A stretch of DNA of 32,000 bases from Xylanibacter ruminicola 23 (GCF_000025925.1 NC_014033.1:3360001-3392000), one strand, 5' to 3'. Positions 2,253 through 29,377 are shown, counted from the stretch's first letter. Numbers and translations: made by a program. Notes: generated by a model from the sequence alone, not told the origin.

Positions 2253-2352
2253 CGACCGTTTTAGTCTGTAAGTCGAAAAAGTATGTAGAATCAAAACAAG
2301 TTTTTTTTATCTCAATTAACTATAGTCAAATTATGTATCAAAATCAATCAAA

Positions 2353-5487: not shown

Positions 5488-5499
5488 AAAAAGAAAACA

Positions 5500-7398: not shown

Positions 7399-7434
7399 GA
7401 TCATCAATACTATTATTTATAAGAACATTGATTT

Positions 7435-10236: not shown

Positions 10237-10249
10237 AGATAAGATAAAT

Positions 10250-12019
10250 ATGAAAAAGATTATTAATATATTGACTCTGGCCGCAGTATCGGTAGCATTC
10301 ACATCATGTGATGACCTGTTTGAGCCTGCTATTGAAAACAACCTCGGTCTGGACTATATGTATGAAAACCCTCAGTACGCTGAAGGCGTATTGGGTAATG
10401 CTTATACACGTATCCCCTGCGCTGACTTCCCATTCAGCGAGGTGGCTACCGACGATGCTGTGAGCAATGACGCTACAAACGACTGGCGTAAGATTGCTTC
10501 AGGTACATGGACTTCGAACGAGAACCCATCAGAGCGTTGGCGTAACTGCCGTGCTGCCATCATGTATCTCAACCTGTTCCTGGCTAATGCCGACAAGGTG
10601 AATTGGGCTAATGACGAGATGGCTTCGCGTATGTTTAACGACCGTGAGAAGGGTGAGGCCTATGGTATGCGTGCCATGTATATGTACTATCTGTTGCAGG
10701 CTCATGGTGGTATGACTGCCGATGGTCAGTTGCTGGGTGTGCCCATCGTAACTGAGCCCGAGGATGCAAGTAGCGAGTTCAATTTGCCACGTAACACTTT
10801 TGCAGAGTGCCTGCAGGCCATCTATGATGACTGCGACCGTGCTTTGGAATTGTTGCCTACTAATTATAAGGATATTAAGAATGCCAGTGAGATTCCTTCA
10901 AAGTATCAGGGTGCAAACGTTGGTCAGTACAACCGTGTGTTCGGTGCTAACTTCCAGCTCCGTATGTCGGGTGCCATTGTCGAGGCTTTCCGTTCTAAGG
11001 CTGCTCTGCTGGCAGCCAGCCCTGCTTTCGAAAAGTCGGGTGCTACCATGGCTCAGGCTGCCGACTATGCAGCAGTAGTTCTGGACCGTATTGGTGGTGT
11101 AGCTGGTATGGATCCTAATGGTTGGACCTGGTACTGCAACAATGAGATTGATGCCCTCTCAGCTGGTCAGCTGCCAAAGGAAATCCTTTGGAGAGGTGAG
11201 GTGGAGAAGAGCGGTAGCAACGACCGCGAGGCTGACATGTTCCCTCCATCACTCTATGGTAAGGGTCGTATCAATCCTACTCAGAACTTCGTCAATGCCT
11301 TCCCAATGGCCAACGGTTATCCTATCGATAATGAAAAGAGTGGATTCAATGCTGCTAATCCTTATGCTGATCGTGATCCTCGTCTGACTGCGTACGTTGT
11401 TTATGATGGCAACGGTGCAGGTAAGGATAACACGGCTATCAACACTACAGTGGATGATTCACAGAACCGTGATGGTTTGAACAACGAGGTTGGTTCTTCT
11501 ACCCGTACAGGTTACTATATGCGTAAGCTGTTGCGTCAGGAGATTAACCTGGATCCCTCGGCAAAAACCACACAGAAGCACTACAATGCTCGTATCCGCT
11601 TTACCGAGATCTTCCTGAACTATGCTGAAGCTGCCAACGAGGCTTGGGGCCCAACAGGTAAGGGTAACCACAGCTATAGTGCTTACGACATCATCAAGGC
11701 TCTGCACGAGCGTGCTGGTGTGGGTAACGACTATCTGGAGAGCATTAAGAACGACAAGGATAAGATGCGCGAGCTGATCCGTAACGAGCGTCGTATTGAG
11801 CTGAGCTTCGAGGGCTTCCGTTTCTGGGATCTCCGTCGTTGGAAGGCTAACCTGACAGAGCCCGCTAAGGGTATCAGCATTAAGACCGTTGATGGTAAGA
11901 AGACCTATACCACCATCGAGGTTGATAAGCGCGATTATAAGGACTACATGATCTATGGTCCAGTACCTTACTCTGAGATGCTGAAGTTCGATGAGTTGAA
12001 GCAGAACCAGGGCTGGTAA
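10250..12019 (+). CDS. xusD: SusD-like surface glycan-binding lipoprotein
   Basis: 589 aa. Lipobox AFTSC is followed by DDLFE. SusD/RagB hallmark IRNERRIELSFEGFRFWDLRRW. Confidence 0.92.
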   Translation: MKKIINILTLAAVSVAFTSCDDLFEPAIENNLGLDYMYENPQYAEGVLGNAYTRIPCADFPFSEVATDDAVSNDATNDWRKIASGTWTSNENPSERWRNCRAAIMYLNLFLANADKVNWANDEMASRMFNDREKGEAYGMRAMYMYYLLQAHGGMTADGQLLGVPIVTEPEDASSEFNLPRNTFAECLQAIYDDCDRALELLPTNYKDIKNASEIPSKYQGANVGQYNRVFGANFQLRMSGAIVEAFRSKAALLAASPAFEKSGATMAQAADYAAVVLDRIGGVAGMDPNGWTWYCNNEIDALSAGQLPKEILWRGEVEKSGSNDREADMFPPSLYGKGRINPTQNFVNAFPMANGYPIDNEKSGFNAANPYADRDPRLTAYVVYDGNGAGKDNTAINTTVDDSQNRDGLNNEVGSSTRTGYYMRKLLRQEINLDPSAKTTQKHYNARIRFTEIFLNYAEAANEAWGPTGKGNHSYSAYDIIKALHERAGVGNDYLESIKNDKDKMRELIRNERRIELSFEGFRFWDLRRWKANLTEPAKGISIKTVDGKKTYTTIEVDKRDYKDYMIYGPVPYSEMLKFDELKQNQGW

Positions 12020-12053
12020 TAAAACAATGTAAAACTAAAAAGTAAAAAAGAAA

Positions 12054-13088
12054 ATGAAACGAATATATGCATTCATTTGTGGAATCTGCGCGCTGAGTGC
12101 TTTCACATCTTGTGAAAACAAGGAGGTGGAGTTTGACGACTTTGACTATCAGACCGTCTACTTTGCCAAGCAGACTCCTATCAGAACGATTGTACTGGGT
12201 GACAATGTTTATCCTACAGAACTTGACAACCAGCATCAGTTCGAGGTATATGCCACTGTAGGTGGTGTATGGAAGAACCGTCAGGATCGTACCATTCAGG
12301 TGGCTGTGGATAACTCACTGGTTACCGGTAAGACCTTCGAGAATGGTTCACCTGTCCAGGCTTTGCCCGAGGATTATTATGAGTTGTTGAGCAATACACT
12401 GACCATTCCTTATGGAAAGGTGATGGGTGCAGTGAAGGTTCAGCTCACTGATAAGTTCTTTGACGATGCCAAGGCTACAAGTCTGAATTATGTACTGCCT
12501 TTGCGTATTGTAGGCGCTAAGGACTCGGTACTGACTGGTAAGGACTATATCCTTTACGGTTTGAAGTATATCAACAAATATACAGGCGCATGGATTAGTC
12601 ATGGTACTGATGAGATTGATCTGAATGGTGTGAAGTCGACCGAGACCCGTGAGGCTGAGTACCTGGAGAAGAACGAGATCCGCTACCTTACTACCGAAGG
12701 TCTGGCAGTAAGCAACTACTCTGTTCCTACAACAGTAGAGGCTTACAGATATGATGATGCTGCGAAAGCGTATAAGAAGACCATCGTATCACTGCCATGT
12801 AACCTCAAGCTGACCTTTGGTCAGGACGAGAGCTGCACAGTAGTTCCTACTACTGCAGGCTGCACCGGTTCTGGTTCAGGTAAGTGGACTTTGAAGGGCG
12901 CTAAGAATGCATGGGGTGGTAAGGATCGCGACGAGATCGTGCTCAACTATACCATCGATTATGAGTACACTGACTATGATCCCAATAACAATTGGGCTGC
13001 TGTTCAGCGTCATAAGATTGTGAAGAGCGCTGATACGCTGGTTATGCGTGATCGTCAGACCAAGCTCGAAACTTTCGTAGTAAAATAA
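12054..13088 (+). CDS. xusE: Surface lipoprotein of unknown fold, probable accessory surface glycan-binding protein (xusE slot)
   Basis: 344 aa. Lipobox AFTSC is followed by the acidic ENKEVEFDD. No catalytic motif recognised. It occupies the conserved hypothetical-protein slot between the second SusD and the GH10 gene in Xus clusters. Confidence 0.7.
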   Translation: MKRIYAFICGICALSAFTSCENKEVEFDDFDYQTVYFAKQTPIRTIVLGDNVYPTELDNQHQFEVYATVGGVWKNRQDRTIQVAVDNSLVTGKTFENGSPVQALPEDYYELLSNTLTIPYGKVMGAVKVQLTDKFFDDAKATSLNYVLPLRIVGAKDSVLTGKDYILYGLKYINKYTGAWISHGTDEIDLNGVKSTETREAEYLEKNEIRYLTTEGLAVSNYSVPTTVEAYRYDDAAKAYKKTIVSLPCNLKLTFGQDESCTVVPTTAGCTGSGSGKWTLKGAKNAWGGKDRDEIVLNYTIDYEYTDYDPNNNWAAVQRHKIVKSADTLVMRDRQTKLETFVVK

Positions 13089-13107
13089 AAAATAATTCTG
13101 AAAGATT

Positions 13108-15231
13108 ATGAAACGTAATATTTCAAATATCATCTGTGGTGTTGTCGCCGTCTGTGGCCTCGCTTCATGTGCCGACACAGACATGATCAACATCTTTAAG
13201 GATAAGACTAAGAATCTGAAGGACTATGAGTACCTGAATGATTACGATGCGCTTAAAACATTTTCTAACCCTAAGGCTTCTCCCAATTTCAAGTTGGGAG
13301 TGGCCTTGGAGGCAGATGACTATAATGCCAACGGTCTTGTTACACGTCTGGCTAATGCCAACTTCATGGAGCTGACAGCAGGAAATGCAATGAAAATGGC
13401 TTCGTGTGTGGATGAGAATGGTAATCTGAACTTCGAGAATGTTCAGGCATTTGTTGATAATGCTGAGGCCAATGGTGTGTCGGTTTATGGTCACACACTG
13501 GCTTGGCATGCTCAGCAGCCCCTGAAGTGGTTGGAGAAGCTGCTCAAAGATAAGGAGCTCGACATCGATCCTAATGCGAAGCTTGAGAAGGAAGACTATT
13601 CTGGTGACTTTGTGGGCATGTCAAAGTTCCCTTATTATGTGATGGGTTATGAGCCATCTATTGTTAATGGCTGTCTGCATTCAGAGAACCCTGGTTCATG
13701 GTATCAGTATTTTATTGCTGATGGTATTTCTATCCCAGCCGATGGCAATTATACTGCTATTGTAAAGGTCAAAGGTTCTGTTGCAAATGATGGTCTTACC
13801 CTGAACTGTGGCTGGGGCTGGGGCTCTGGCGAGTCAGCTTCGGGTAAACTGAAGATTACAACAGACTGGACTGAGCAGAAGGTCGACTTTACCGGAATTC
13901 CTGGTGGAAAGAAGTGTAACCTTGTACTTCAGCCTGGTAGCTATGACGGTACTCTTGATATTCAGACCGTTCGTCTGGTTCATTACGAATCACCTGCTAT
14001 CGAGGTTGCAGTTAACGATTATGATTACTCGTTCAAGGATGTTAGTAAGTTCCCATATTATGTGATGGGCTACGAGCCAACAATTGTTAATGGCTGTCTG
14101 CATTCAGAGAACCCAGGTTCATGGTATCAGTACTTCATTGCTGATAACATTCCGCATCCTATCGAGGGTACTTATGTTGCAACCGTACGTGTAAAAGCTT
14201 CAAAGGCTGGCAGCATGGCTCTTAATATGGGCTGGGGCTGGGGCTCTGGCGAATCTGCATCTGGAACTTTGAAGGTTGATACTGAATGGAAGGATGTGAA
14301 GGTTACCTATGATAATATCCCTGCCAAGTCATGTAACCTGGTACTCCAGCCTGGTAGCTTCGATGGTGTTATTGACATCGCATCGGTGAAGGTTGACCAC
14401 ATCGTAAAGATGAACACACTGCCTCTGACAGAGAAAGAGAAGAAGGATACACTGACTTATGCTCTGGATAAGTGGATCGGTGGTATCATGACTGCTTGTG
14501 ATGGTAAGGTAAAGGCTTGGGACGTAGTAAACGAGGCACTCTCAAGCGGACATGCCGATGCTGAGGGCGTATATGCTTTGCAGCACCTGAAGGATCAGGA
14601 AGATCCTGAAAAGGCTGCAACCGAGAGCTTCTTCTGGCAGGATTATCTGGGCGATATCGACTATGTTCGTACTGCCGTTAAGCTGGCTCGCAAGTATGGT
14701 CCACAGGATATGAAGCTCTTCATCAACGACTATAACCTTGAGGCTGCTTGGGATCAGAACAACAAGGCCAAGAGTCTGGTTGCTTGGATTAAGCGTTGGG
14801 AGGCTGACGGCGTGACCAAGATTGATGGTATCGGTAGTCAGATGCACGTAACCTGCAGCATGAATGCCGACAAGCAGAAGGCTAATGAAGAGGCTGTTGT
14901 GAACATGCTGAACATTCTGGCTGGTAGCAAGAAGCTGGTTAAGATCTCTGAGCTTGATATGGGCTGTGAGGATGAAGCCGGCAATGTTATTAAGACAGAG
15001 AATATGACCGAGGAGCAGCATAAGGCTATGTCTGCTTACTATAAGTTCATCATCGAGAAGTACTTTGAGATTATCCCTGCTGACCAGCAGTATGGTATCT
15101 GCCAGTGGTGCATTACCGATGCTCCAACTAACTCAGGTTGGCGCAAGGGTGAGCCTGTAGGTCTCTGGGATCTCGATTATAACCGTAAACATACCTACGG
15201 CGGATTTGCTGATGGTTTGAACGGTAAATGA
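13108..15231 (+). CDS. xyn10C: GH10 endo-1,4-beta-xylanase lipoprotein with two CBM4-like modules inserted in the catalytic domain
   Basis: 707 aa. Lipobox GLASC is followed by ADTD. GH10 N-terminal strands (YGHTLAWHAQQP), acid/base block KAWDVVNEAL and nucleophile block KISELDMG. About 290 aa containing a tandem repeat lie between the HTLAWH block and the rest of the barrel, as in the Xyn10C-type enzymes of Prevotella and Bacteroides. Confidence 0.92.
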   Translation: MKRNISNIICGVVAVCGLASCADTDMINIFKDKTKNLKDYEYLNDYDALKTFSNPKASPNFKLGVALEADDYNANGLVTRLANANFMELTAGNAMKMASCVDENGNLNFENVQAFVDNAEANGVSVYGHTLAWHAQQPLKWLEKLLKDKELDIDPNAKLEKEDYSGDFVGMSKFPYYVMGYEPSIVNGCLHSENPGSWYQYFIADGISIPADGNYTAIVKVKGSVANDGLTLNCGWGWGSGESASGKLKITTDWTEQKVDFTGIPGGKKCNLVLQPGSYDGTLDIQTVRLVHYESPAIEVAVNDYDYSFKDVSKFPYYVMGYEPTIVNGCLHSENPGSWYQYFIADNIPHPIEGTYVATVRVKASKAGSMALNMGWGWGSGESASGTLKVDTEWKDVKVTYDNIPAKSCNLVLQPGSFDGVIDIASVKVDHIVKMNTLPLTEKEKKDTLTYALDKWIGGIMTACDGKVKAWDVVNEALSSGHADAEGVYALQHLKDQEDPEKAATESFFWQDYLGDIDYVRTAVKLARKYGPQDMKLFINDYNLEAAWDQNNKAKSLVAWIKRWEADGVTKIDGIGSQMHVTCSMNADKQKANEEAVVNMLNILAGSKKLVKISELDMGCEDEAGNVIKTENMTEEQHKAMSAYYKFIIEKYFEIIPADQQYGICQWCITDAPTNSGWRKGEPVGLWDLDYNRKHTYGGFADGLNGK
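13621..14400 (+). repeat. Intragenic tandem duplication of a roughly 141-codon CBM4-like module (copy 1 13621-13983, copy 2 14044-14400)
   Basis: SKFPYYVMGYEPSIVNGCLHSENPGSWYQYFIAD...GWGWGSGESASGKLK...CNLVLQPGSYDG aligns with SKFPYYVMGYEPTIVNGCLHSENPGSWYQYFIAD...GWGWGSGESASGTLK...CNLVLQPGSFDG. The period is 423 nt. Confidence 0.9.
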
Positions 15232-15368: not shown

Positions 15369-17027
15369 ATGAAGCCTGAATACATCAATAGATATCTCCA
15401 GACGGCTGCCAAAAAGAATTGGATTTTGTCAGTTTTTCTTGGCGCTTTGATCTTTTTGTTTTGGGGAGGATATCTGCCGCATGCACTTTCTTACGCAGAG
15501 CAATACCAACTGTTTTTGTGGACGCCTGACTATCTGTTAGGATGTTTGGGGCATCCAGGAGGGGCTGCTGAATGGCTCGAAACATGTATGGTGCAGTTTT
15601 ATTACCTGCTGTGGTTGGGGGCAATGATTCTGGCTTTGCTTTTTATCGGCTATCAGCGGATGGTGGCAAGCTGGTTAAAAGCAGAGTCTTTTCTGCTGAG
15701 TTTGATTCCTGCTATTTTGCTCTTTTGGGCGATGGGCGATCTGGATGTGCTTCTTTCGTTTCCTATCGCTATTATGGCTTCTCTGGCGATGGCTAAGATT
15801 GGTGTTGCTAATCGTTGGTTGGATATCTGCAAGGAAATGGTTCTGACACCATTGGTATATTGGCTGATTGGTCCGATGGCATGGCTGTATGTAGCATTAC
15901 GCATTGTGGTGGATTACAAGCGCTTTATCTGGCTGCCATTATGGTTGTTGGCCATACAACTGGTGTTGTGGCATACGTTGCTGGAGCAGTTACCCTTACA
16001 CTCGGTGATGTGTTCTATGGGCTATTATCGTAGTCCATCGGTGGTTCCCCTGCTATGGATAGTGCCACTATCCGTGCTGTTATGTGTGTTGGCTGACCGA
16101 CTATATATAAATAAGGTATTAAAGTGGCCTGTTCAGGCGATTGCCGTTGTGGTGTTAGGTTGGCTGGCTGTGACACGTGGTTATGCCGATGAGCGCTACG
16201 AGTTGGTATGGCAAGACTATCAAATCAGAAACGAACATTGGGACGACATCATCAAACGGGCCGAACAGAAAACGGTGGAAACGGCATTCTGGTCTAACAG
16301 CGTGAATCTGGCATTGGCAGAACGTCGCCAGTTGGCTGATAGAATGTTCGACTTTTACCAGAGCGGAATCGATGCCTTGTTAATGAATATGGTACGCGAT
16401 CCATTCTCGAATATACCAGCTGCCGAGGCTTTCTATCGTTTGGGTATGGTTAATTCTGCACAACGGTATATGTTTGATATGCAGGAGTCGATCAATAATG
16501 GCAGAAAGAGCGGACGTTTTACCCAGCGTATCGCTGAGTGCTATATTATCAATGGGAAATACGATTTGGCCAGGAAACATCTGGCGCTCCTGAAGAACAG
16601 TCTGTTTTATAAGAACTGGGCAGAAGAGGCAGAGCAATATCTGGGCGATGAGGCTGGGATTAATGCCCATTCTGTTTGGGGAAAGTTGCGACAATATCGA
16701 CAGAAGCAGGATTTCCTGTTCTACTACCCGGAGATGGCTTCGATGCTGGGTAGCTTGTTTAATGGAAACAGATCGAACACCATGGCGTTGGATTATTTCG
16801 TGGCGCAGGTCCTGTTGAACGGCGATGCGCCCACCTTCCAGCAGGCATTGCCATGGGTAGAGCAGTGTGGAGGCTATATGCAGATGCCTCGTGGTTATCA
16901 AGATGCCTTGAACTGTATCCAGCGTCAGGGTAATGTGCCAGGTTCGCCGTATGCCGCCTTTATCAGTAGGATGTTAGCGAAAGCACAGCAACAACAAAAC
17001 AATCAAGTGTATGAAACAGCTCATTAA
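15369..17027 (+). CDS. Uncharacterised polytopic membrane protein (about 8 predicted TM segments) with a C-terminal helical, TPR-like soluble domain; paralogue A1
   Basis: 552 aa. Hydrophobic segments by eye at about aa 18-36, 73-95, 108-123, 126-145, 157-180, 186-205, 225-242 and 255-269, followed by a roughly 280-aa hydrophilic helical region. Shares the blocks KKNW, FWG, QLFL..DYL, LVQF, YWL.GP and SLFYKNWA with the ORF at 18505. From memory it resembles the Bacteroidota DUF6057 membrane-protein family; this is unverified. Confidence 0.8.
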   Translation: MKPEYINRYLQTAAKKNWILSVFLGALIFLFWGGYLPHALSYAEQYQLFLWTPDYLLGCLGHPGGAAEWLETCMVQFYYLLWLGAMILALLFIGYQRMVASWLKAESFLLSLIPAILLFWAMGDLDVLLSFPIAIMASLAMAKIGVANRWLDICKEMVLTPLVYWLIGPMAWLYVALRIVVDYKRFIWLPLWLLAIQLVLWHTLLEQLPLHSVMCSMGYYRSPSVVPLLWIVPLSVLLCVLADRLYINKVLKWPVQAIAVVVLGWLAVTRGYADERYELVWQDYQIRNEHWDDIIKRAEQKTVETAFWSNSVNLALAERRQLADRMFDFYQSGIDALLMNMVRDPFSNIPAAEAFYRLGMVNSAQRYMFDMQESINNGRKSGRFTQRIAECYIINGKYDLARKHLALLKNSLFYKNWAEEAEQYLGDEAGINAHSVWGKLRQYRQKQDFLFYYPEMASMLGSLFNGNRSNTMALDYFVAQVLLNGDAPTFQQALPWVEQCGGYMQMPRGYQDALNCIQRQGNVPGSPYAAFISRMLAKAQQQQNNQVYETAH

Positions 17028-18495
17028 TCATATTTCTATTGTCTTGACAGCGATCTTCTGTCTGGTCATGCTGGAGGGCTGTCGCCATCAGGTGGAGCAT
17101 GCAACTCGTGTGCATCAGGTGCCTGCTATCTATCCCGATTATGTAGGGGTGACTATCCCGGCGGGTATTGCTCCCTTGGATTTTAATTTCGTGGGTGGCA
17201 ATGTGGATCTGTTGGATGTAACGGTTCGTGGCTCTAAAGGAGGCGAACTGCATGTACAAGGTGAATGGGCTGACTTTGATATTGAAGCATGGCAACAGCT
17301 GACCCAACAGAATGCAGGTGGTGAGTTGCTATTTACTGTTTGTGTGGAGCATGATGACCAGTGGACACAGTATGATGATTTCAAGGTGTATGTGAGCAAA
17401 CTGCCCTTAGAGGATTATGGCCTGACTTATCGTAGAATTCCACCTGGTTATGAGGTGGGTGGCGCTAACATCGGTATCTATCAGCGTGATTTGCACAGTT
17501 TCGACGAGACTGCCATTTTGAAGGTGAGTGCTGTTTACGGCCATTGCATCAACTGTCATACAGCTAACCAGACCAATCCTTCTACGCTTACCATGCAGTT
17601 CCGTGGCGAAGGTGGTGGCACCCTGGTGCAGAAGAATGGCAACCAGCAATGGCTGAATACCCGTACCGATTCTACCAAGGCTGCTGGCAGCTATGCCTAC
17701 TGGCATCCGTCGGGGCGTTATTGTGCTTACGCCGTGAATTCGGTGCATCAGAATTTCCATGTGGGTACCGAGAAACGTATTGAGGCTTATCACCGCTTTA
17801 GCGATCTGATTCTCTTAGATACTCAGACCAATCAACTGATACTCTCGCCATTGTTACAGACGGAGGATCAGGAGATATTCCCCGCATTCTCGCCCGATGG
17901 TAAGTATCTGTATTACAGCACTTCGAAACCATGCAATCTGCCTGCTGAGTACGAGAAGGTGAAGTGTAGCATCTGCCGGATTGCCTTTGATGGGAAGACA
18001 GGCACTTTCGGTAACGAGGTTGATACACTGGTAAATACTGCGGCTACCGGTAAGAGTTATACGTTGGTTCGTCCTTCTTACGATGGACGCTGGCTGATGT
18101 TCTGTGTGAGCGACCATAGTAATTTCCCGGTGTTCCAGAATGATGCCGACTTATGGCTGATGGACTTGAAAACTGGTGAGATGCGTGAGTTGAAGGAGGT
18201 AAACAGTCGTAAGACGGAGAGCTTTCATAACTGGAGCTCAAACAGTGGATGGTTTGTGTTCTCGTCGAAACGCGAGAATGGCGAGTATGCCCAACTTTAC
18301 CTGGCATCTATAGATGATAAAGGCCGTGTTACCAAGCCGTTCTTGTTGCCCCAGCGTAATCCCAAGAAATACTACAGTGAATTGTTCGACTCGTATAATG
18401 TGCCCGATTTCACCAAGTCACCAGTAAGTCTGGATGTACATGAGGTTCACAGACAGGTGTTTGATGGCAAGCGACAACAGGTAACAATTAGATAA
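17011..18495 (+). CDS. Uncharacterised lipoprotein with a single CXXCH motif and PD40/TolB-like beta-propeller repeats; paralogue B1
   Basis: 494 aa. Signal peptide with lipobox MLEGC (Cys24). CINCH at nt 17545-17559. PD40-like blades PAFSPDGKYLYYST, RPSYDGRWLMF and HNWSSNSGWFVFSS. Collinear with the ORF at 19740 over its whole length. The start overlaps the A1 stop by 17 nt. Confidence 0.85.
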   Translation: MKQLINHISIVLTAIFCLVMLEGCRHQVEHATRVHQVPAIYPDYVGVTIPAGIAPLDFNFVGGNVDLLDVTVRGSKGGELHVQGEWADFDIEAWQQLTQQNAGGELLFTVCVEHDDQWTQYDDFKVYVSKLPLEDYGLTYRRIPPGYEVGGANIGIYQRDLHSFDETAILKVSAVYGHCINCHTANQTNPSTLTMQFRGEGGGTLVQKNGNQQWLNTRTDSTKAAGSYAYWHPSGRYCAYAVNSVHQNFHVGTEKRIEAYHRFSDLILLDTQTNQLILSPLLQTEDQEIFPAFSPDGKYLYYSTSKPCNLPAEYEKVKCSICRIAFDGKTGTFGNEVDTLVNTAATGKSYTLVRPSYDGRWLMFCVSDHSNFPVFQNDADLWLMDLKTGEMRELKEVNSRKTESFHNWSSNSGWFVFSSKRENGEYAQLYLASIDDKGRVTKPFLLPQRNPKKYYSELFDSYNVPDFTKSPVSLDVHEVHRQVFDGKRQQVTIR

Positions 18496-18504
18496 CCAAA
18501 CGAA

Positions 18505-19728
18505 ATGATGAAAAAGAATTGGAAACTATATCTGACAGCCCTATTTGGTATAGCTGTGTTCTGTTTCTGGGGGTATGTGTGGCCTGAAGTGATATTGGCG
18601 CGTGAGTCGTTTCAGCTGTTCCTCTATCAGGATGATTATCTGATGGAGCGGTTGGCTTTTCCTGATGGCATGGCGCGCTATGTTGGAGAGTTCCTGGTAC
18701 AGTTCTTTCGATTCGTGACGCTGGGAGCCTTGCTATCTGCTATCTTGCTGGTTGCTATTCAACAGCTTTTCGGTGTGCTGCTGAAACGAGTTCTGCCTGC
18801 TGTCAGTGAAAAGATTCTTTTCCCCGTATCTTTCTTGCCTTCGGTCGTGCTGTGTTACCTGTTATGCGACCTGGACTTCTCAATGACTCTGCCTGTAGGT
18901 CTTCTGTTTACATTGGTGCTGATATTGCTATTGCCCCATCGGAAGATGCCTGCTTTCATCGTTTCATGTCTGCTCGTGCCAATAGGCTATTGGCTGGCAG
19001 GTCCTATCATCGTGTTGCTGCCTTTATATCATCTCAGAATGCTTTCTATCCCTCGCGAAAGAATAGCTGTTGTAGCACAGACTTCGGGTATGGGCCTGCT
19101 GTTGCTGGCCTGTATCATCTTCAGTTCGTATTTCGTGCCGTATTCTTTGGAGAATATATTCAAGGGCTTGGATTACCAGATGATTCAGCGTGGCAAGTTT
19201 GGCACCGATGAGGAGATGGTGTATGATCGTCTTTTGCGTATGAAAGACTGGAACGAGATTGTCAGGAGGTCGAACGAGCAGGAACCGCAGTCGTTAGCTT
19301 GTAAAAACGTGGTACGTTTGGCCAAGTATTACCTGAAGCAGATTTCCGGTGATGAGTTGAAGGAGAATCTGTTGCATACTTACGAGGTGCTGACCAGTGG
19401 TATGGCGGCCATGATGATGAGCGATGTATATCTTCACATGGGTTTCCCGAACATATCGCAACGTGCTGCCTTCGAGGTGCTGGAGAGTACTTCGAATTAT
19501 AATATGAGTGGTCGTGAACTGTCGCGACTGGTGGAAACAGCTCTGATTACGGGGCAATATGAGGTAGCGTTGAAATACATCTCTTTGTTGGAATCTACCT
19601 TGTTCTATCGTAACTGGGCAAAACAGATGAGAGAGTTGGCTGCGCATCCTGAAACAATTAAAAGGGTGCCATTCTATGGCCCGTTACAGGATATCTATGG
19701 TCAGACAGTTGATGTGAATTTCTTTTAG
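18505..19728 (+). CDS. Uncharacterised polytopic membrane protein with a shorter C-terminal helical domain; paralogue A2
   Basis: 407 aa with the same N-terminal layout as A1 (MMKKNW..., FWG, QLFLYQDDYL, LVQFF, GYWLAGP). The soluble domain aligns with A1 (SQRAAFEVLESTSNYNMSGRELSRLVETALITGQYEVALKYISLLESTLFYRNWA versus SAQRYMFDMQESINNGRKSGRFTQRIAECYIINGKYDLARKHLALLKNSLFYKNWA). It ends about 100 residues earlier than A1, measured from the shared LFY(K/R)NWA block. Confidence 0.8.
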   Translation: MMKKNWKLYLTALFGIAVFCFWGYVWPEVILARESFQLFLYQDDYLMERLAFPDGMARYVGEFLVQFFRFVTLGALLSAILLVAIQQLFGVLLKRVLPAVSEKILFPVSFLPSVVLCYLLCDLDFSMTLPVGLLFTLVLILLLPHRKMPAFIVSCLLVPIGYWLAGPIIVLLPLYHLRMLSIPRERIAVVAQTSGMGLLLLACIIFSSYFVPYSLENIFKGLDYQMIQRGKFGTDEEMVYDRLLRMKDWNEIVRRSNEQEPQSLACKNVVRLAKYYLKQISGDELKENLLHTYEVLTSGMAAMMMSDVYLHMGFPNISQRAAFEVLESTSNYNMSGRELSRLVETALITGQYEVALKYISLLESTLFYRNWAKQMRELAAHPETIKRVPFYGPLQDIYGQTVDVNFF

Positions 19729-19739
19729 ATGAAGGTGAT

Positions 19740-21188
19740 ATGAAGAAGATAAACAAATGGGCTTTGATAACACTGCTGTCATTTCTCGTGTCGGCATGTA
19801 GTCTGCACCCTGATCATGTGCAGATGGTGAACCAGCAGCCTGATATATATCCGGATTATATCGGTGTAACGATACCTGTGGATATCGCACCGCTGAATTT
19901 CTCAATGACTGATGATGACTTTACAGATGTCTATGTAGATGTGAAAGGCGAGAAGGGTGGTTCTATACATGCAGAGGGGACCTATGCTGATTTTGACGTA
20001 GATGAGTGGCATCAGTTATTGAAGGCTAACAAGGGAAGTCGTTTGTTGGTGTCGGTGATGGCATGCAGAGAGGGAAACTGGTATCAGTATCGCGACTTTT
20101 CTATCGAGGTTAGTCCGAATCCGCTTGACGAATGGGGTATTACCTATCGCCGTATTGCGCCCAGTTATGCGCTCTATGGTCATATGGGGCTGTATCAGCG
20201 TTGTCTCTCTGACTTTACAGAAACGTCGATGCTGGAGAATTCGCAAGTGCATGGACAATGCATGAACTGTCATACCCAGAATCGTACGAATCCTGAGCAG
20301 TATGTGTTCCATGTGAGAGGTGAGCATGGTGCTACAGTGGTACATCAACACGGAAAGGATGTACTCCTCAAAGCGCGTAACGACAGTCTGGGAGGTACAA
20401 TGGTCTATCCCTACTGGCATCCGAGTGGTCGCTATTGTGCCTTTTCAACTAATAAAACAGCACAGATGTTTCATACTGGCAACAACAAGCGTATTGAGGT
20501 GTTTGATACCTCATCGGATGTGTTTGTTTACGACATGGAGAAGCATGAGGTTATCAAGGATACCCTGATTATGACGACTGGTTGGGCAGAGAATACACCT
20601 GCTTTCTCGCCTGATGGTAAGTGGTTGTATTTTACAACTGTCAGATGTGGCAACTATCCCAAAGGCTATGATCAGGTAAGGTATAGTCTTTGTAGAGTGG
20701 CATTTGATGAGAAATCGGGCAAGATTGGTACCGAGGTGGATACGTTGGTAAATGCTGGTGTAACGGGTAAAAGCGTGACTTGGCCTCGCCCTTCGTATGA
20801 TGGAAAGTACTTGATGTACACGCAGTTGGATTATGGTTACTTCTCGGTTTGGCATCCGGAAGCAGATTTATATATGCTTGATCTTGAGACGGGAGTAAAC
20901 AGACCATTGAACGAGGTGAATAGCATACGTTCGGAGAGTTTGCATAACTGGACGCGTAATAGTCGTTGGTTCCTGTTTACCAGTCGTCGTGAGGATGGTT
21001 TGTACACACGTCTTTATTTCTCGTCTGTTGATGAACACGGGAAGGCCACCAAGCCGTTCCTGCTTCCACAACAAAATCCTAAGGAGTATTATCAGCGCTT
21101 AATGTATTCGTATAACACCCCCGATTTTACATCTGTACCAGTTAAAACGAATGCTCGCGAAATGGGTAGGAAAATAGAGCGTTTCTGA
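19740..21188 (+). CDS. Uncharacterised lipoprotein with a single CXXCH motif and PD40/TolB-like beta-propeller repeats; paralogue B2
   Basis: 482 aa. Lipobox LVSAC (Cys20). CMNCH at nt 20259-20273. PAFSPDGKWLYFTT, RPSYDGKYLMY and HNWTRNSRWFLFTS. Blocks shared with B1 include IYPDY.GVTIP, ITYRRI, YWHPSGRYCA, EVDTLVN and TKPFLLPQ.NPK.YY. Confidence 0.85.
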   Translation: MKKINKWALITLLSFLVSACSLHPDHVQMVNQQPDIYPDYIGVTIPVDIAPLNFSMTDDDFTDVYVDVKGEKGGSIHAEGTYADFDVDEWHQLLKANKGSRLLVSVMACREGNWYQYRDFSIEVSPNPLDEWGITYRRIAPSYALYGHMGLYQRCLSDFTETSMLENSQVHGQCMNCHTQNRTNPEQYVFHVRGEHGATVVHQHGKDVLLKARNDSLGGTMVYPYWHPSGRYCAFSTNKTAQMFHTGNNKRIEVFDTSSDVFVYDMEKHEVIKDTLIMTTGWAENTPAFSPDGKWLYFTTVRCGNYPKGYDQVRYSLCRVAFDEKSGKIGTEVDTLVNAGVTGKSVTWPRPSYDGKYLMYTQLDYGYFSVWHPEADLYMLDLETGVNRPLNEVNSIRSESLHNWTRNSRWFLFTSRREDGLYTRLYFSSVDEHGKATKPFLLPQQNPKEYYQRLMYSYNTPDFTSVPVKTNAREMGRKIERF

Positions 21189-21307: not shown

Positions 21308-24070
21308 ATGATTAATAAATCAGCAGCCATAGCAGCACTCATGTTGCTAGCTACAGGTGCGAAGGCACAGAACCCCTTCGTACAGACTTGGTGTACCAGC
21401 GACCCTGCACCGATGGTACATAACGGAATAATGTATGTTTATACTGGTCATGACGAAGATGGCGCCGACTTCTTTTGGATGCAGGAGTGGCGTGTATATT
21501 CAACTCAGGATATGGTGAACTGGCAGGACCATGGTTCGCCATTGGCCTTGGAGACTTTCTCGTGGGCCGATGACCGTGCTTGGGCCGGACAGACTATCGA
21601 ACGTGACGGAAAATTCTACTGGTATATCTGTGCTCATTCAAAGATTTCGAATGGTATGGCCATTGGTGTGGCTGTGAGCGATAGTCCTACAGGTCCGTTT
21701 AAGGATGCACTTGGAAAACCTTTGTTTGAGAATGGCAGCTGGGATCATATCGATCCAACCGTGATGATTGATGACGATGGGCAGGCTTGGCTGATGTGGG
21801 GTAATCCACAGTGCTACTACCTGAAGCTGAACCGTGATATGATTTCGTACGAAGGTGAACTGGGAAAGCTGCCTATGACCGAAGAGGCTTTTGGCGGTCC
21901 GATGATGAAGGAGCGCGAGAAGGGCAAGACCTATAAAGATTCGTATGTTGAAGGTCCTTGGTTAACCAAGCGCAATGGTACATATCAGTTGTTGTATGCT
22001 GCTGGCGGCGTGCCTGAGCATATCTCCTATAGTACGGCTCCATCGCCTCTGGGTCCTTGGAAATATGCCGGCGAGATTATGCCGCTGTGCGATACCAACT
22101 CGTTTACCAACCACTGTGGTGTGGCCGATTATAAAGGTCATAGCTATTTCTTCTACCATACAGGTAAACTGCCAAATGGTGGCGGTTTCGGTCGTAGTGT
22201 AGCTGTTGAGGAGTTTAAGTACAATGCCGATGGCAGTTTCCCAAAGATTATGCCCACCGATGCAGGCGTGAAGCCTGTTGGCGTGTTTAACCCTTATCGT
22301 AAGGTTGAGGCCGAGACGATGGCTTTCTCGAAAGGCGTGAAGACCGAGCAAAATGATGAGGTAGGGGTTTATGTCAGTGACATCCACAATGGCGACTATA
22401 TCAAACTTCAGAATGTGGCCTTTGCCAACAAGTATCCACGTACGTTCACAGCCCGTGTGGCCAGTGGTTTGCGTGGTGGCAGAATTGAGATTCATCTCGA
22501 CAGTATCGGTGGCAGATGTTTGGGCACCCTGAACGTGCCTGGTACAGGTGGCTGGGAGAAGTGGCAGACCATTACCGTTGATCTGGATTACTCTACCATC
22601 ACCGATATCGATGCACCAACCCGAACCATTTCGGGTTTGAACCTGCCTGCTACAGCCGACGTTTATCTGGTGTTCAAAGGTCGTAAGGGACCAAAACTGT
22701 TTAACTTCGACTGGTGGGAGATGCGTGGACTGGAGCAGGTGAACATGCCTTTGTTCCAAACCAAATATACTGCCGACCCATCGCCACTGGTAGTAGGTGA
22801 TACCCTGTTCCTCTATACTTCGCATGATGCCTCGCCCGAGGATATCCCCGATGTGAACGAGAAGAGTTCGGCAGGTTTCTTTATGTACGACTGGCTGTTG
22901 TGGAGCACTACCGATATGGTGAACTGGACCGAGCATGGTGCAGTGGCTTCGTTGAAAGACTTCGCTTGGCGCAGTCGCGAGAACGGTGGCTGGGCTATCC
23001 AGACCGTAGAGCGTAATGGTAAGTATTACCTGTATGCCCCTCTGCATGGTCATGGTATCGGTGTACTGGTGGCCGATTCGCCTTACGGACCGTTTAAAGA
23101 CCCACTCGGCAAGCCATTGGTTTGGGATCAGAGTAACTGGTATGATATCGACCCATCAGTTTATACCGACGACGATGGTCAGGCTTATATGTACTGGGGA
23201 AACCCACATACCTTCTGGGCTAAGTTAGGTGAGGATATGACATCGCTGACCAGCGGTGTAACCAAACTGCCACATATCCCCAACTATCAGGAGGGACCTT
23301 GGTTCTACAAGCGCAATGGTCATTACTATTTAGGTTTCGCATCAACCTGTTGCCCTGAGGCTTTAGGCTATGCCATGAGCGACAGTCCTACCGGACCTTG
23401 GGAATGGAAAGGCTATATTATGAAGCCCACCCAGCGCGACCGTGGTAACCATCCCGGTATCTGCGATTTCAAGGGACATTCGTATGTGTTCGGTCAGAAC
23501 TACGATCTGATGCATCTGGAGACTTTTGTGCACCATGAGCGTCGCAGTGTGTCGGCTCAGGAGATTACCTATAATGGCGATGGCACCATCCAGGAGATTC
23601 CTTACTGGTTGGACCAGCAGCCCATGAAGCAGTTGCACTGGCTGAACCCCTACCAGCGTGTAGAGGCTGAGACCATGGCTTGGGGCTTCGGACTGAAGAG
23701 TGCCAAGATGGGTATCGAGAATCCTGGTGTGGTAGCAGATATGCCTACCTCAACGGGAAAGAAGAATATGTATATCTTTGATATTAATGATGGCGAGTAT
23801 ATCAAACTGCGTGGTGTTGACTTCGGTAAGGGTGCCAAGCAGTTTAATATCACAGCAGCCGCTACTGGTGGTTGCACCATCTGTCTGCGATTAGATAGTG
23901 CCGACGGTCCTGTGGTAGGTACCGTCACCATCGGTAAGACCGGTGGCGTTGAGAAATATCGCTCATTCGGTGGCAAAGTGAAGAATGCTGCTGGTGTGCA
24001 TGATCTTTATATATGTTTCGACAAAGCATCAGGTGATGTTCGTCTGGATTGGTGGCAGTTTAAAAAATAA
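21308..24070 (+). CDS. Two-headed GH43-CBM6-GH43-CBM6 enzyme (probable alpha-L-arabinofuranosidase / beta-xylosidase)
   Basis: 920 aa with a signal peptide. GH43 starts NPFVQTWCTSDPAPMV and PLFQTKYTADPSPLVV, each followed by DMVNW..HG, Y.Y....G.GIGVAVSDSPTGPFKD-type blocks and EGPW. Each half ends with a CBM6-like module (NPYRKVEAETMAF...GDYIKLQNVAF and NPYQRVEAETMAW...GEYIKLRGVDF). Confidence 0.9.
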   Translation: MINKSAAIAALMLLATGAKAQNPFVQTWCTSDPAPMVHNGIMYVYTGHDEDGADFFWMQEWRVYSTQDMVNWQDHGSPLALETFSWADDRAWAGQTIERDGKFYWYICAHSKISNGMAIGVAVSDSPTGPFKDALGKPLFENGSWDHIDPTVMIDDDGQAWLMWGNPQCYYLKLNRDMISYEGELGKLPMTEEAFGGPMMKEREKGKTYKDSYVEGPWLTKRNGTYQLLYAAGGVPEHISYSTAPSPLGPWKYAGEIMPLCDTNSFTNHCGVADYKGHSYFFYHTGKLPNGGGFGRSVAVEEFKYNADGSFPKIMPTDAGVKPVGVFNPYRKVEAETMAFSKGVKTEQNDEVGVYVSDIHNGDYIKLQNVAFANKYPRTFTARVASGLRGGRIEIHLDSIGGRCLGTLNVPGTGGWEKWQTITVDLDYSTITDIDAPTRTISGLNLPATADVYLVFKGRKGPKLFNFDWWEMRGLEQVNMPLFQTKYTADPSPLVVGDTLFLYTSHDASPEDIPDVNEKSSAGFFMYDWLLWSTTDMVNWTEHGAVASLKDFAWRSRENGGWAIQTVERNGKYYLYAPLHGHGIGVLVADSPYGPFKDPLGKPLVWDQSNWYDIDPSVYTDDDGQAYMYWGNPHTFWAKLGEDMTSLTSGVTKLPHIPNYQEGPWFYKRNGHYYLGFASTCCPEALGYAMSDSPTGPWEWKGYIMKPTQRDRGNHPGICDFKGHSYVFGQNYDLMHLETFVHHERRSVSAQEITYNGDGTIQEIPYWLDQQPMKQLHWLNPYQRVEAETMAWGFGLKSAKMGIENPGVVADMPTSTGKKNMYIFDINDGEYIKLRGVDFGKGAKQFNITAAATGGCTICLRLDSADGPVVGTVTIGKTGGVEKYRSFGGKVKNAAGVHDLYICFDKASGDVRLDWWQFKK

Positions 24071-24079
24071 ATAACGATA

Positions 24080-26227
24080 ATGAAGAAACTAATATCAACT
24101 ATTCTGTTCTGTGTAGTGGCAGTGTCGGCCACTGCGCAGAACCTTTCTGTAACTTATGTGGCTAAGAATGCCGTGAGAGTGAGATACGCCAATCCGGCTA
24201 CAAAGAGTGAATTGCCCGACTGGTTGTATGTGAGTCACGATGAACTGAAACAAGCTGATATTACTGCCGAGGTGGATGGTCGCACCTTGACGGTGAAAGA
24301 TAATACAGGTAAAGCTGTATTTAAAGCCACTGACCATCAGTTGGCGGGTAGCGAGGCTACACTGACTTTCGTCTCGCCTAAGGATGAATATCTCTTCGGT
24401 CTGGGACAGTTCCAGGATGGCTACAGCAATGTGCGTGGATTGTCGCGCCGACTTACACAGGTAAACACCCAGATCAGCATCCCCATGCTGATTTCGAGTA
24501 AGGGCTATGGCGTGCTGTGGAATAACTACGGCCTGACCGACTTTAACCCATGCAGTCACAGTGTGAAACTAACGAAGCGTGCTGGTGCCGGTGAGCGTGA
24601 GGTGGTGGATGTTACCTCTACCGAAGGTGGCAAGCGTGAGGTTCGCGAACGCCATATCTTCGAGGCCACGATTGATATTGATGAAACCGTCGATTATGCG
24701 CTGCTGCTCGATGTGGGGCAGAAGATGGCGCGCCGCCATAACCTGACCATAGATGGCGAGCAGGTGATAGAGATGCAGAACGTATGGCTGCCACCTACGG
24801 CCTCTAAGATAGTACATCTGACCAAAGGTCGTCACCAGCTGTCGGCAGAACTGACCAAGATTGATCAGCCTGTCGTATATTATAATAAGGTGAAAGACGA
24901 GACTGTGTTCCGTTCGCCAGTAGCCGATGGTGTTGACTATACGGTGTTTGTGGGTTCGCCTGATGAGATTATTGCGACCTATCGCGAGCTGACCGGTGAG
25001 TGCCCTCAGATGCCAGAGTGGGCTTTGGGGTATATCCACTGTCGCGAGCGTTTCCACTCGTCGGATGAGATTCTCCAGACCGCCAACCGCTTCCGTAGCG
25101 AGAACCTGCCCGTGAGTATGCTGGTTCAGGACTGGCAGTATTGGGGCAAATACGGTTGGAACTCGATGCGTTTCGATGAGGCGTTCTATCCCGATCCCAA
25201 GGCGCTGACCGACAGTCTGCACCAGATGGGCATGAAACTGATGCTGAGTGTGTGGTCGAAGATCGACAAGAACTCTGAAGTGGGTCAGCAGATGCTAGCC
25301 GCCAACTATTATATCCCTGAAACTGATTGGATTGACTTTTTTAATCCTGAGGCTGCCGCTGCCTATTGGAAGAACTTCAAAGAGCGCCTGTTGCCTTTGG
25401 GTATCGATGCCTGGTGGCAGGATGCTACCGAACCTGAGAACGACGACCTGTTGGACCGTAAGGTGAACAACGGTCGATGGAATGGTGAACAGGTGCGTAA
25501 TGTCTATCCGCTACTGGTGAACAAGACGGTGTATGAAGGTCTTTTGGCTGCTGGTAAGGAACCAATGATACTCACCCGTTGCGGTTTTGCTGGTATCCAG
25601 CGCTATGGCTCGGCCATGTGGAGTGGTGATGTGGGTAACGATTGGGAGACTTTCCGCCGCCAGATTACAGCAGGTCTTGGCATGCAGGCTGCTGGTATCC
25701 CCTGGTGGACCTACGATGCCGGCGGCTTCTTCCGTCCGCAGAACCAATATACCGATAGTGCTTATATTGAACGCATGCTGCGCTGGATAGAGACCGCTGT
25801 TTATCTGCCACTGATGCGTGTGCATGGTTATATGAGTAATACCGAACCCTGGAACTATGGTCAGGAGGCGCAGACAATCATTGCTAACTGTCTGAAAGAG
25901 CGCTATCAGCTTCTGCCTTATATCAAGCGTTGCGCCAAGGCTGTCTCTGAACAGGGTAGTACACTGATGCGCCCATTGGTGTTCGACTTCGCACATGATG
26001 CCGAGGCTCTGAAGCAAAAGTATGAATACATGTTTGGTCCGGCACTGCTCATCAGTCCGGTTACCGAGCCAGGTGTGACCACATGGCGCACCTATCTGCC
26101 CAAGCATCCTGGCGGTTGGACCGACTATCATACAGGAAAATACTACGATGGCGGACAGTATGTTGAAACGCCAGTAACTAAGGCCTATATCCCTGTGTTT
26201 GTCAGAGTTGGATATTCTATAGAATAA
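24080..26227 (+). CDS. GH31 alpha-glycosidase (probable alpha-xylosidase or alpha-glucosidase acting on xylan side chains)
   Basis: 715 aa with a signal peptide. GH31 blocks GIDAWWQDATEPE, LTRCGFAGIQRYGSAMWSGDV and IPWWTYDAGGFF. Starts 9 nt after the GH43 gene. Confidence 0.85.
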   Translation: MKKLISTILFCVVAVSATAQNLSVTYVAKNAVRVRYANPATKSELPDWLYVSHDELKQADITAEVDGRTLTVKDNTGKAVFKATDHQLAGSEATLTFVSPKDEYLFGLGQFQDGYSNVRGLSRRLTQVNTQISIPMLISSKGYGVLWNNYGLTDFNPCSHSVKLTKRAGAGEREVVDVTSTEGGKREVRERHIFEATIDIDETVDYALLLDVGQKMARRHNLTIDGEQVIEMQNVWLPPTASKIVHLTKGRHQLSAELTKIDQPVVYYNKVKDETVFRSPVADGVDYTVFVGSPDEIIATYRELTGECPQMPEWALGYIHCRERFHSSDEILQTANRFRSENLPVSMLVQDWQYWGKYGWNSMRFDEAFYPDPKALTDSLHQMGMKLMLSVWSKIDKNSEVGQQMLAANYYIPETDWIDFFNPEAAAAYWKNFKERLLPLGIDAWWQDATEPENDDLLDRKVNNGRWNGEQVRNVYPLLVNKTVYEGLLAAGKEPMILTRCGFAGIQRYGSAMWSGDVGNDWETFRRQITAGLGMQAAGIPWWTYDAGGFFRPQNQYTDSAYIERMLRWIETAVYLPLMRVHGYMSNTEPWNYGQEAQTIIANCLKERYQLLPYIKRCAKAVSEQGSTLMRPLVFDFAHDAEALKQKYEYMFGPALLISPVTEPGVTTWRTYLPKHPGGWTDYHTGKYYDGGQYVETPVTKAYIPVFVRVGYSIE

Positions 26228-26246
26228 TTACATAAACTTTAAACTT

Positions 26247-28175: not shown

Positions 28176-28192
28176 ATCAAGAGAAAAAAACT

Positions 28193-29377
28193 ATGAGACT
28201 TATATCAACTATTGTACTGTGTTGTGCTGCCCTCTGCGCTCAGGCGCAGCAGGGTGGCCAACTTCCATTAGCTTATCAGGTAGAGAATACTGGCGCAGCT
28301 TTTGCAAAGCCTGCCATGCCTGCAGCTAATGAACTGCCCGTTATCAAGGATCTGCCCGACCCACTGAAAGGCGTGAATGGTTTTAGTGACTGGGCGCGTA
28401 AGCGTAGTGAGATAGCTGCGCTGATACAGCATTATGGTATTGGCGAGAAACCTGCTGTGAAGAAAGAGAATATCAAGGCCCGCATGAGTGGCGACACCCT
28501 CATTGTGGATGTGACCGTGAATGGACAGACACTCACTTTGACCTCTGAAATCAGATATCCCAAAACGGGCAAGGCGCCTTATCCCCTGATGATTGGCTCG
28601 AGCATGATTGCGCTGCCACGCCAGTTGTTCGAGGACCGTCCCATTGCCACCATGAACTTCCACGAGAAGCAGGTGAACGACTACGGACAGTGGGGCAAGC
28701 ACCATGAGCGTGGTGAGCACAACTTCGACCGTCTCTATCCACAGTTGAAGGATAACGGTGCTTATAGCGAATGGGCTTGGGGCTTCAGTCGTTTGATTGA
28801 TGGCTTGGAGCTGTTAGGTCCTGAGGTAACCAAGATTGATACCAAGCGTATTGGTGTTACAGGTTGCTCGTATGCCGGAAAAATGGCCCTGTATTGTGGT
28901 GCTTTTGATGAGCGTGTGGCTCTGACCATCGCTCAGGAACCTGGTGGTGGCGGTGCTGCTGCCTGGCGCTACTCGCATCTGCAGGACAGCGTAGAGAATC
29001 TGGATAAGACCGACTATCACTGGTTCTTGGAGAGTCAGCTCACTAACTTCCATGGCGACAGTGTGTATCAGCTGCCTTACGACCAACATGAGCTCTGTGC
29101 ACTGATTTGTCCACGTGCCTTGCTGCTGTTAGGTAATCCCGATTACAAGTGGTTGGCCGACGATGCCATGTTGGTATCAGCCAAGGCAGCCAAGAAGGTA
29201 TGGGAGCGTTTCGGTATTGCCGATCGTATGGGTTGGAGTATCGTTGGTGGTCACGGCCACTGTCAGTTGCCTGAGTGCCAATGGCCCGAAGTTTTGGCCT
29301 TTATTGATAAATTTTTGTTAGGCAAAGATACTAAAACGAGTGATATTCGCGTTTATTCTAAAACATTAATCAAATGA
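28193..29377 (+). CDS. CE15 glucuronoyl esterase (non-canonical GCSYAG elbow)
   Basis: 394 aa with a signal peptide. CE15 blocks LPDPLKGVNGFSDWARKRSEIAALIQHYGIGEKP, IGVTGCSYAGKMAL, ALTIAQEPGGGGAAAWRY and GGHGHCQLP. Confidence 0.85.
   Translation: MRLISTIVLCCAALCAQAQQGGQLPLAYQVENTGAAFAKPAMPAANELPVIKDLPDPLKGVNGFSDWARKRSEIAALIQHYGIGEKPAVKKENIKARMSGDTLIVDVTVNGQTLTLTSEIRYPKTGKAPYPLMIGSSMIALPRQLFEDRPIATMNFHEKQVNDYGQWGKHHERGEHNFDRLYPQLKDNGAYSEWAWGFSRLIDGLELLGPEVTKIDTKRIGVTGCSYAGKMALYCGAFDERVALTIAQEPGGGGAAAWRYSHLQDSVENLDKTDYHWFLESQLTNFHGDSVYQLPYDQHELCALICPRALLLLGNPDYKWLADDAMLVSAKAAKKVWERFGIADRMGWSIVGGHGHCQLPECQWPEVLAFIDKFLLGKDTKTSDIRVYSKTLIK

Follow-up and report, generated by a model that had tools for sequence, protein, structure and literature searches.

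The DNA analysed here, a stretch of 32,000 nucleotides from Xylanibacter ruminicola 23 (NC_014033.1:3360001-3392000; referred to as the window), is a xylan utilisation locus with two tandem A-B gene pairs in its middle (Table 1). Each pair consists of a gene for a DUF6057 membrane protein (A1, A2) and a gene for a lipoprotein (B1, B2). We focused on a CXXCH motif, the attachment signature of haem c, which is present in both lipoproteins. The genes are tightly packed, with a 17-nt overlap between the A1 stop and the B1 start, and distances of 9 and 11 nt at the remaining two junctions of the tandem pairs. By protein comparison, the closest named relative is Xylanibacter (Prevotella) ruminicola D31d (96% identity).

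The two lipoproteins share 47% identity over 484 residues. Each begins with a signal peptide followed by a lipobox cysteine, which bears out their previous assignment as exported lipoproteins. In an alignment of 129 sequences with 29-79% identity, on which the conservation analysis was based (residue numbering according to B1), the lipobox column C24 is at least 90% conserved. Signal peptide and lipobox imply export to the periplasmic side, as expected of a c-type cytochrome and as required by System II of haem attachment; the orientation at the outer membrane is what we infer from additional data presented below.

The CINCH of B1 and the CMNCH of B2 share one column in the pairwise alignment of the two proteins, and the positions given for both motifs in the preliminary description were exact. 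Shuffled B1 sequences contained at least one CXXCH in 0.64% of trials, shuffled B2 sequences in 0.37%, and the motif was absent from the other 15 window proteins examined. The B family is large, with 5,642 clusters at 90% identity (E<=1e-5) and 1,940 clusters at 50% identity (E<=1e-3), 429 of the latter with E<1e-30. Exactly one CXXCH was found in 118 of the 120 closest homologues, in 144 of the 149 best 50%-identity cluster representatives (29-59% identical to B1), and in all 157 B copies from 77 genome loci. Among the five representatives without the motif, two are fragments that do not cover the site, and three are full-length.

Only seven columns of the 129-sequence alignment are invariant, namely R141, C179, C182, H183, R198, G297 and W414. 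N181 is kept in 126 of the 129 sequences, residue 180 is always hydrophobic, and the family consensus at the site is C-[MVILF]-N-C-H-[TS]-[FY]. The two cysteines and the histidine thus passed the invariance test that had been proposed for them, and the motif is under very strong constraint and conserved among homologues as expected for a c-type cytochrome. From the wider context G.C.NCHT.N.TNP that had been described as conserved, the two cysteines, the asparagine, the histidine and the following T/S are conserved family-wide, but the rest is not. Judging from these sequence comparisons, the CXXCH of B1 and B2 is not a chance motif.

A third cysteine three residues past the histidine (column 186 of B1, resulting in C-x-N-C-H-x-x-C) is present in 22 of the 129 cluster representatives. 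Two metagenome contigs from different studies contain B1 alleles that are nearly identical to the window DNA (one mismatch in the aligned flanks), each with an in-frame deletion that removes the CINCH hairpin (69 nt, window 17527-17595, and 99 nt, window 17510-17608; alleles at L171:603-2018 and L172:1501-2886). The deletion borders have only 2-nt microhomology, and no other indel variants occur in the set of 120 closest homologues. The two alleles may have lost the site naturally, or they may be artefacts of assembly.

Table 1. Features of the window, with positions counted from its first nucleotide.
Feature	Position	Strand	Remarks
Upstream part of the xylan locus	56..15231	+	GH115, two SusC/SusD pairs, DUF5627 surface glycan-binding-type protein, GH10
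A1	15369..17027	+	DUF6057 polytopic membrane protein, 552 aa, partner of B1; PF19529 E=1.6e-119
B1	17011..18495	+	lipoprotein, 494 aa, predicted N-terminal beta-sandwich and six-bladed PD40 propeller; PD40 PF07676 E=8.6e-10
CINCH of B1	17545..17559	+	C179, I180, N181, C182, H183 by translation; codons tgc atc aac tgt cat
Q196-F197-R198 of B1	17596..17604	+	partner strand of the motif hairpin (model); R198 invariant
Y228 of B1	17692..17694	+	strand A of blade 3 (model); lost with the motif in all three motif-less lineages
A2	18505..19728	+	shorter DUF6057 membrane protein, 407 aa, partner of B2; PF19529 E=3.7e-72
B2	19740..21188	+	lipoprotein paralogous to B1, 482 aa; PD40 PF07676 E=9.2e-9
CMNCH of B2	20259..20273	+	residues 174-178 by translation; codons tgc atg aac tgt cat
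H-V-R of B2	20310..20318	+	counterpart of Q196-F197-R198 of B1; family-typical His kept
Downstream part of the xylan locus	21308..30318	+	GH43-CBM6, GH31, esterase, CE15-type glucuronoyl esterase, BD-FAE

In order to delineate the residues that go together with the motif, we used the three full-length representatives without CXXCH (P0143, P0198 and P0241). Each of them has a different motif-bearing nearest neighbour, which points to three independent losses. N181, R198 and Y228 are changed in all three lineages, and H196 and C182 in two of three each; the lineage that keeps C182 has lost C179, N181 and H183. Nearly all other conserved residues are retained, including R141, R159, H232, W414 and R421 in all three lineages and H406 in two of them. 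Because the losses are joint and most other conserved residues stay in place, C179, N181, C182, H183, H196, R198 and Y228 behave as one functional unit. Residue 196 is a histidine in 112 of the 129 sequences, including B2, and a glutamine throughout the group of B1 orthologues (at least 66% identity). The tandem paralogues B1 (Gln196) and B2 (His196) represent two variants of the site, which are usually kept side by side.

The co-loss data also bear on the block YWHPSGRYCA, which had been suggested as an invariant source of histidine and cysteine ligands. It turned out to be a PD40 blade signature (W-S/H-P-D/S-G); its cysteine is replaced by I, V or L in 111 of the 129 sequences, and its histidine, His232, survives the loss of the motif. 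H/Q196, R198 and Y228 are better candidates for pocket residues.

A model of B1 was calculated with AlphaFold2 from the 129-sequence alignment (prediction made without haem) and was of high confidence (predicted local distance difference test, pLDDT, 96; predicted template modelling score, pTM, 0.93). It consists of a beta-sandwich (residues ~25-130) and an all-beta region, which according to the strand pattern comprises six four-stranded PD40 blades. The CINCH lies inside a strand of residues 179-186 (local pLDDT 92-95), which is followed by a two-residue turn and a paired strand of residues 189-198 with residue 196 and R198. By likeness to other W-S-P-D-G blades, the CINCH strand would be the innermost strand (A) of blade 2. 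The model thus places the motif within a blade, and not in a haem domain between the N-terminal region and the propeller, as had been suggested; B1 as modelled has no separate haem domain.

A Foldseek comparison of the model with the PDB retrieved only generic propellers. The best match was TolB (E=2e-14, template modelling score, TM-score, 0.47), followed by prolyl oligopeptidases (E=1e-8 and weaker, TM-score 0.34-0.37) and the PL22 lyase 3pe7 (E=3.5e-7, TM-score 0.33). The cd1-type nitrite reductase NirS, to which a loose resemblance had been noted, appeared at rank 48 (E=7.2e-7, TM-score 0.32), which does not support a specific likeness. A sequence search of the PDB with B1 gave no match. 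Both the repeats and the fold place B1 and B2 in the PD40 beta-propeller superfamily. Their family, which is very large and has not been described, consists of exported lipoproteins of Bacteroidales built from a beta-sandwich and a six-bladed PD40 propeller.

The association of the B family with DUF6057 is strict. The order DUF6057 to B on the same strand was found in 77 of 77 genome loci as well as in both pairs of the window. A locus has one (26 cases), two (26), three (23) or four (2) copies of the cassette, often arranged as A-B-A-B followed by an inverted pair. Distant B members (31% identity) are also paired with DUF6057, including a motif-less one downstream of a hybrid two-component regulator. 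Upstream of the cassette of a distant member (L090:4096-9912, 31% identity to B1) are genes for a radical SAM protein (PF04055) and two functionally uncharacterised proteins, in place of SusC/SusD. Among the 77 loci, a SusC-like gene was found in the flanks of 41 and xylan-type genes in those of 12 only, which argues for a general accessory of SusC/SusD loci that is not specific for xylan. The xylan setting that had been reported is therefore true of the window, but not characteristic of the cassette.

According to its AlphaFold model (pLDDT 91), A1 has ~8-9 membrane helices and a C-terminal TPR-like helical domain. Foldseek did not detect a significant fold match for the DUF6057 model in the PDB (best E=0.12, from the TPR-like tail), and the DUF6057 profile gave only weak matches to unrelated membrane proteins among PDB sequences (E>=0.016). 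The most conserved residues of the family are E44, Q47 and F49 in the first loop, Q76-F77, and a cluster of R383, R387, E390 and K403 in the helical domain. We considered DUF6057 as a dedicated haem lyase or a glycosyltransferase and dropped both options, as there was no sign of a CcsBA/CcmF-like or GT-C-like fold and no conserved histidine or cysteine.

Two observations indicate on which side of the membrane the two proteins meet. Natural DUF6057::B fusions exist (P0151, P0165 and P0211), and the match of P0151 to B begins at the equivalent of B1 residue 39, so that the signal peptide of B is not retained. A fusion of this kind suggests that the C-terminal domain of the partner and B are on the same, periplasmic side. 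In Bacteroidota, acidic residues after the lipidated cysteine mark lipoproteins for surface export. Such residues are present in only 10 of 117 B proteins, consistent with a periplasm-facing location. From these sequence features, B likely faces the periplasm.

A c-type haem lipoprotein in the xylan locus of a fermentative anaerobe had been called unexpected. According to published data, a c-type cytochrome in a fermentative member of the Bacteroidales is in itself no surprise: both c-type cytochromes and ccsA/ccsB have been described for Bacteroides, Porphyromonas and Prevotella, nrfAH is known in Bacteroides thetaiotaomicron and Porphyromonas gingivalis as well as Prevotella intermedia, and B. 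thetaiotaomicron has ccsA/ccsB within its nrf operon and also at two or more further loci (PMC10434189). In our searches, compact fused ResB-CcsA synthases (CcsBA) of 450-490 residues were widespread in Prevotella. Look-ups of 20 synthase clusters gave Prevotella names and no member on the 3.58-Mb contig of assembly GCA_019973335.1, in which the window DNA also occurs. Many are 'orphans' that lie among housekeeping genes with no nrfHA nearby (for example L082:8001-9413, L085:8001-9404, L088:1882-3198 and many of L091-L113), and a second class follows directly after nrfH-nrfA (for example L118, L120 and L141). As the orphan synthases are far from nrfHA, their client cytochromes are not evident. 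One orphan compact synthase is followed, after 68 bp, by the gene for a 196-residue FKBP-like protein that has a single CXXCH (L082:9481-10071; also in L083 and L084).

In Segatella albensis DSM 11370, the gene for a 385-residue fused ResB-CcsA (PF05140 and PF01578, WGHYWNWDPKE, five invariant histidines; L037:11527-12684) is separated by 57 bp from an upstream B1-like (Gln196) gene of the same strand, in a locus with a single DUF6057-B cassette. The order of B and CcsBA is shared by a metagenome relative, in which the synthase is 83% identical and the gap is 21 bp. We regard the S. albensis neighbourhood as moderate support for haem. The short synthases of 385 residues (L037:11527-12684 and L087:2222-3379) are at most 46% identical to the compact synthases of other Prevotella.

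Together, we consider covalent haem c to be the best reading of the CXXCH in B1 and B2, at slightly better than even chances, and the two proteins are probably an undescribed kind of haem protein. This reading is supported by the exact and invariant C-x-x-C-H spacing in an exported protein and by the invariance of C182, which a two-thioether haem site explains and a strand geometry that turns C182 away from C179 and H183 does not. The co-lost arginine, tyrosine and histidine are of the kind that holds propionates and provides a distal ligand, and the widespread compact synthases, many of them without an obvious client, point in the same direction. The mechanism that we infer, from haem attachment and ligand roles to periplasmic orientation and physiological role, would be as follows. 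Once the protein is exported by Sec and lipidated, haem would be attached to C179 and C182 by a System II synthase (CcsBA), with proximal ligation of the iron by H183. The residues co-lost with the motif would complete the pocket, R198 and Y228 as probable propionate partners, together with residue 196. With His196, the residue of B2 and of most members, the haem would be six-coordinate (bis-His); with Gln196, the residue of the B1 orthologues, the distal site would be open or weakly ligated. Each B would work with the DUF6057 protein encoded upstream and probably dock on its TPR-like domain on the periplasmic side. The cassette would act as an accessory of SusC/SusD loci in general, in a redox, ligand-sensing or catalytic step of glycan use. 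A broader proposal, that the DUF6057-B cassette represents a large unrecognised family of mono-haem c-type cytochromes, multi-copy in Prevotella and other Bacteroidales, with the haem inside a PD40 blade, wired to SusC/SusD loci and client of the orphan CcsBA synthases, is more tentative, and we rate its chances somewhat below even.

Several observations weigh against covalent haem c. Solved CXXCH haem sites generally have helical-turn geometry, suited to two thioethers and ligation by the histidine, whereas the model places the motif of B1 in a regular beta-hairpin. As residues i and i+3 of a regular beta-strand are turned to opposite sides, C179, N181 and H183 would share one face with H196 and R198, and I180, C182 and T184 would point toward the hydrophobic core. 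This geometry, predicted without haem, is the main argument against canonical haem c attachment. The nearly invariant N181 and the always hydrophobic residue 180 also form the pattern of an amphipathic strand and are not needed for haem attachment. Whole B1 and B2 did not match any Pfam or NCBIfam cytochrome family at E<=0.1. Eight excised motif segments gave a single PF00034 match in Pfam at E<=10 (E=0.077), which does not amount to a cytochrome c domain, and there was no specific match to any solved haem-propeller. As DUF6057 has no conserved histidine or cysteine, the cassette lacks an obvious redox partner. B and CcsBA were adjacent in one of 77 genome loci and in none of 80 metagenome CcsBA loci; the adjacency is confined to one small clade and had to be rejected as a general rule, and the chance of one accidental adjacency in this sample is an estimated ~10%.

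The main rival explanation of the same structural data is a Cys/His site without haem, in which the blade-2 hairpin presents C179, N181, H183, H/Q196 and R198 on one face, with Y228 of blade 3 close by. Located near the propeller's central channel, where many propeller enzymes have their sites, it could bind a metal (Zn, Fe or Cu) or a substrate, or use a thiol for catalysis; the CXXCH spacing would then be a by-product of strand periodicity. We consider this explanation less likely than haem c, although it agrees with the confident placement of the motif in a regular strand, with the alternation of the polar and invariant C179/N181/H183 and the hydrophobic positions I180/C182/T184, and with the position of the genes within polysaccharide utilisation loci. 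His/Tyr/Arg catalytic sets occur in propeller carbohydrate-active enzymes and resemble the co-lost N181, H183, H196, R198 and Y228, and one of the Foldseek matches (E=3.5e-7) is PL22 (3pe7), a propeller lyase that depends on a metal. The motif-less lineage that keeps C182 without C179, N181 and H183 also fits a C182 apart from the polar face. However, the invariance of C182 (129/129 and 157/157) is left unexplained if this residue merely faces the core, and so is the constant exact C-x-x-C-H spacing. An adjacent cysteine and histidine are generally awkward as ligands of one metal, a soluble enzyme would not need a membrane partner at a ratio of 1:1, the Foldseek matches are generic (TM-score at most 0.47), and the ccsBA neighbour in S. 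albensis remains without explanation.

A purely structural role, with the cysteine pair as a disulfide or as stabiliser of the blade-2 hairpin, the histidine as a packing residue and no cofactor, would agree with the modelled position of the motif within a structural element of the propeller, and with the failure to detect a cofactor-binding family in Pfam for whole proteins as well as excised segments. It is nevertheless improbable. Purely structural residues are rarely invariant at 29% identity amid varying neighbours, and here the two cysteines and the histidine account for three of the seven columns without variation. Their joint loss with R198, Y228 and H196 speaks for a functional pocket, and a disulfide between residues i and i+3 of a regular strand is generally strained. 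Lastly, B1 and B2 are tandem paralogues, and a chance motif could have been shared between them only through recent paralogy. The conservation of the motif down to 29-31% identity across hundreds of clusters, versus a shuffle expectation of 0.4-0.6%, refutes this idea, to which we assign a negligible probability.

The B family can be compared with several known systems. TolB, the best structural match, resembles B in its PD40 repeats (PF07676, E ~1e-9 for B), in the order of an N-terminal domain and a six-bladed propeller, and in the periplasmic envelope location. However, the TolB equivalog TIGR02800 scores only 24 bits (cut-off 343), which does not support an assignment as TolB, and the N-terminal domain of B is a beta-sandwich with a conserved PDY..VTIP..IAPLNF motif of its own. 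In addition, B differs from TolB in being lipidated, in the invariant CXXCH modelled in blade 2, and in its DUF6057 and SusC/D neighbours in place of tol/pal.

The combination of a propeller and a CXXCH in an exported protein is shared with NirS (cd1), quinohaemoprotein dehydrogenases and hydrazine synthase. These proteins carry haem c in a separate helical cytochrome domain, and the eight-bladed propeller of NirS holds haem d1. In contrast, the model of B has six blades, with the motif inside a blade and no helical domain at the motif, and does not qualify as a cd1-type protein. Cytochrome f is a predominantly beta protein with a CANCH motif and a single haem c, and uses its N-terminal amino group as ligand. 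It provides a precedent for haem c attached via C-hydrophobic-N-C-H on a beta protein, but it lacks sequence or fold kinship to B, differs in its ligands, and does not hold its haem in a propeller blade.

PL22 oligogalacturonate lyase (3pe7) is similar to B in being a propeller in a glycan-utilisation context, with a conserved His/Tyr/Arg cluster near the channel. PL22 is seven-bladed and has a His3Gln Mn site; B does not have the His3Gln set, has a membrane partner, and is only distantly similar in fold (TM-score 0.33). In B. thetaiotaomicron, the BT2473-82 locus contains ccsA genes and a 'thiol oxidoreductase' outside nrf (PMC10434189). As a Bacteroidales locus with CcsA-type genes of its own, it resembles the arrangement of B and ccsBA in S. 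albensis. The co-encoded proteins are unrelated to B, though, PMC10434189 is silent on the clients of the ccsA genes, and the B arrangement is found in one clade only.

Within the library searched, no paper mentions DUF6057, and literature on CXXCH or PD40 in polysaccharide utilisation and on c-type cytochromes of Prevotella yielded nothing on the B family. In the databases, B homologues are named 'hypothetical' or 'PD40 domain-containing protein', and we know of no haem protein among the described components of polysaccharide utilisation loci. Few gene systems of gut and rumen microbes have been studied as well as these loci of Bacteroidota, and the DUF6057-B cassette is a conserved, often multi-copy and uncharacterised element next to them. 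If the haem reading is correct, many genomes of Prevotella, a genus dominant in the rumen and in the human gut, would have several genes for c-type cytochromes next to those for glycan importers, and fibre degradation would be tied to the supply of haem and to cytochrome c maturation. Glycan acquisition by gut and rumen fermenters would then include a haem-dependent redox, ligand-sensing or catalytic step, and the 'orphan' compact CcsBA synthases of Prevotella would have a purpose. The haem c would be held in a new structural way, for which the PDB matches found offer no precedent, and the His196 (B2-type) and Gln196 (B1-type) proteins would differ in role, the former being six-coordinate and the latter having an open site. 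Should there be no haem, what remains is a B family with a sharply defined site of Cys, His, Arg and Tyr and with a membrane partner without detectable structural relative in the PDB, and DUF6057-B is an uncharacterised two-component module of polysaccharide utilisation loci.

Some minor observations concern the window and the sampled contigs. Among the open reading frames of the window, the two DUF6057 proteins were the only polytopic membrane proteins identified, and there was no recognisable inner-membrane sugar transporter of the MFS or SSS type. A2 is ~145 residues shorter than A1. Three contigs with Prevotella-like SusC/DUF6057/B genes were labelled Subdoligranulum, Acutalibacteraceae and Lachnospiraceae (L029, L033 and L039), probably due to binning contamination of metagenome-assembled genomes.

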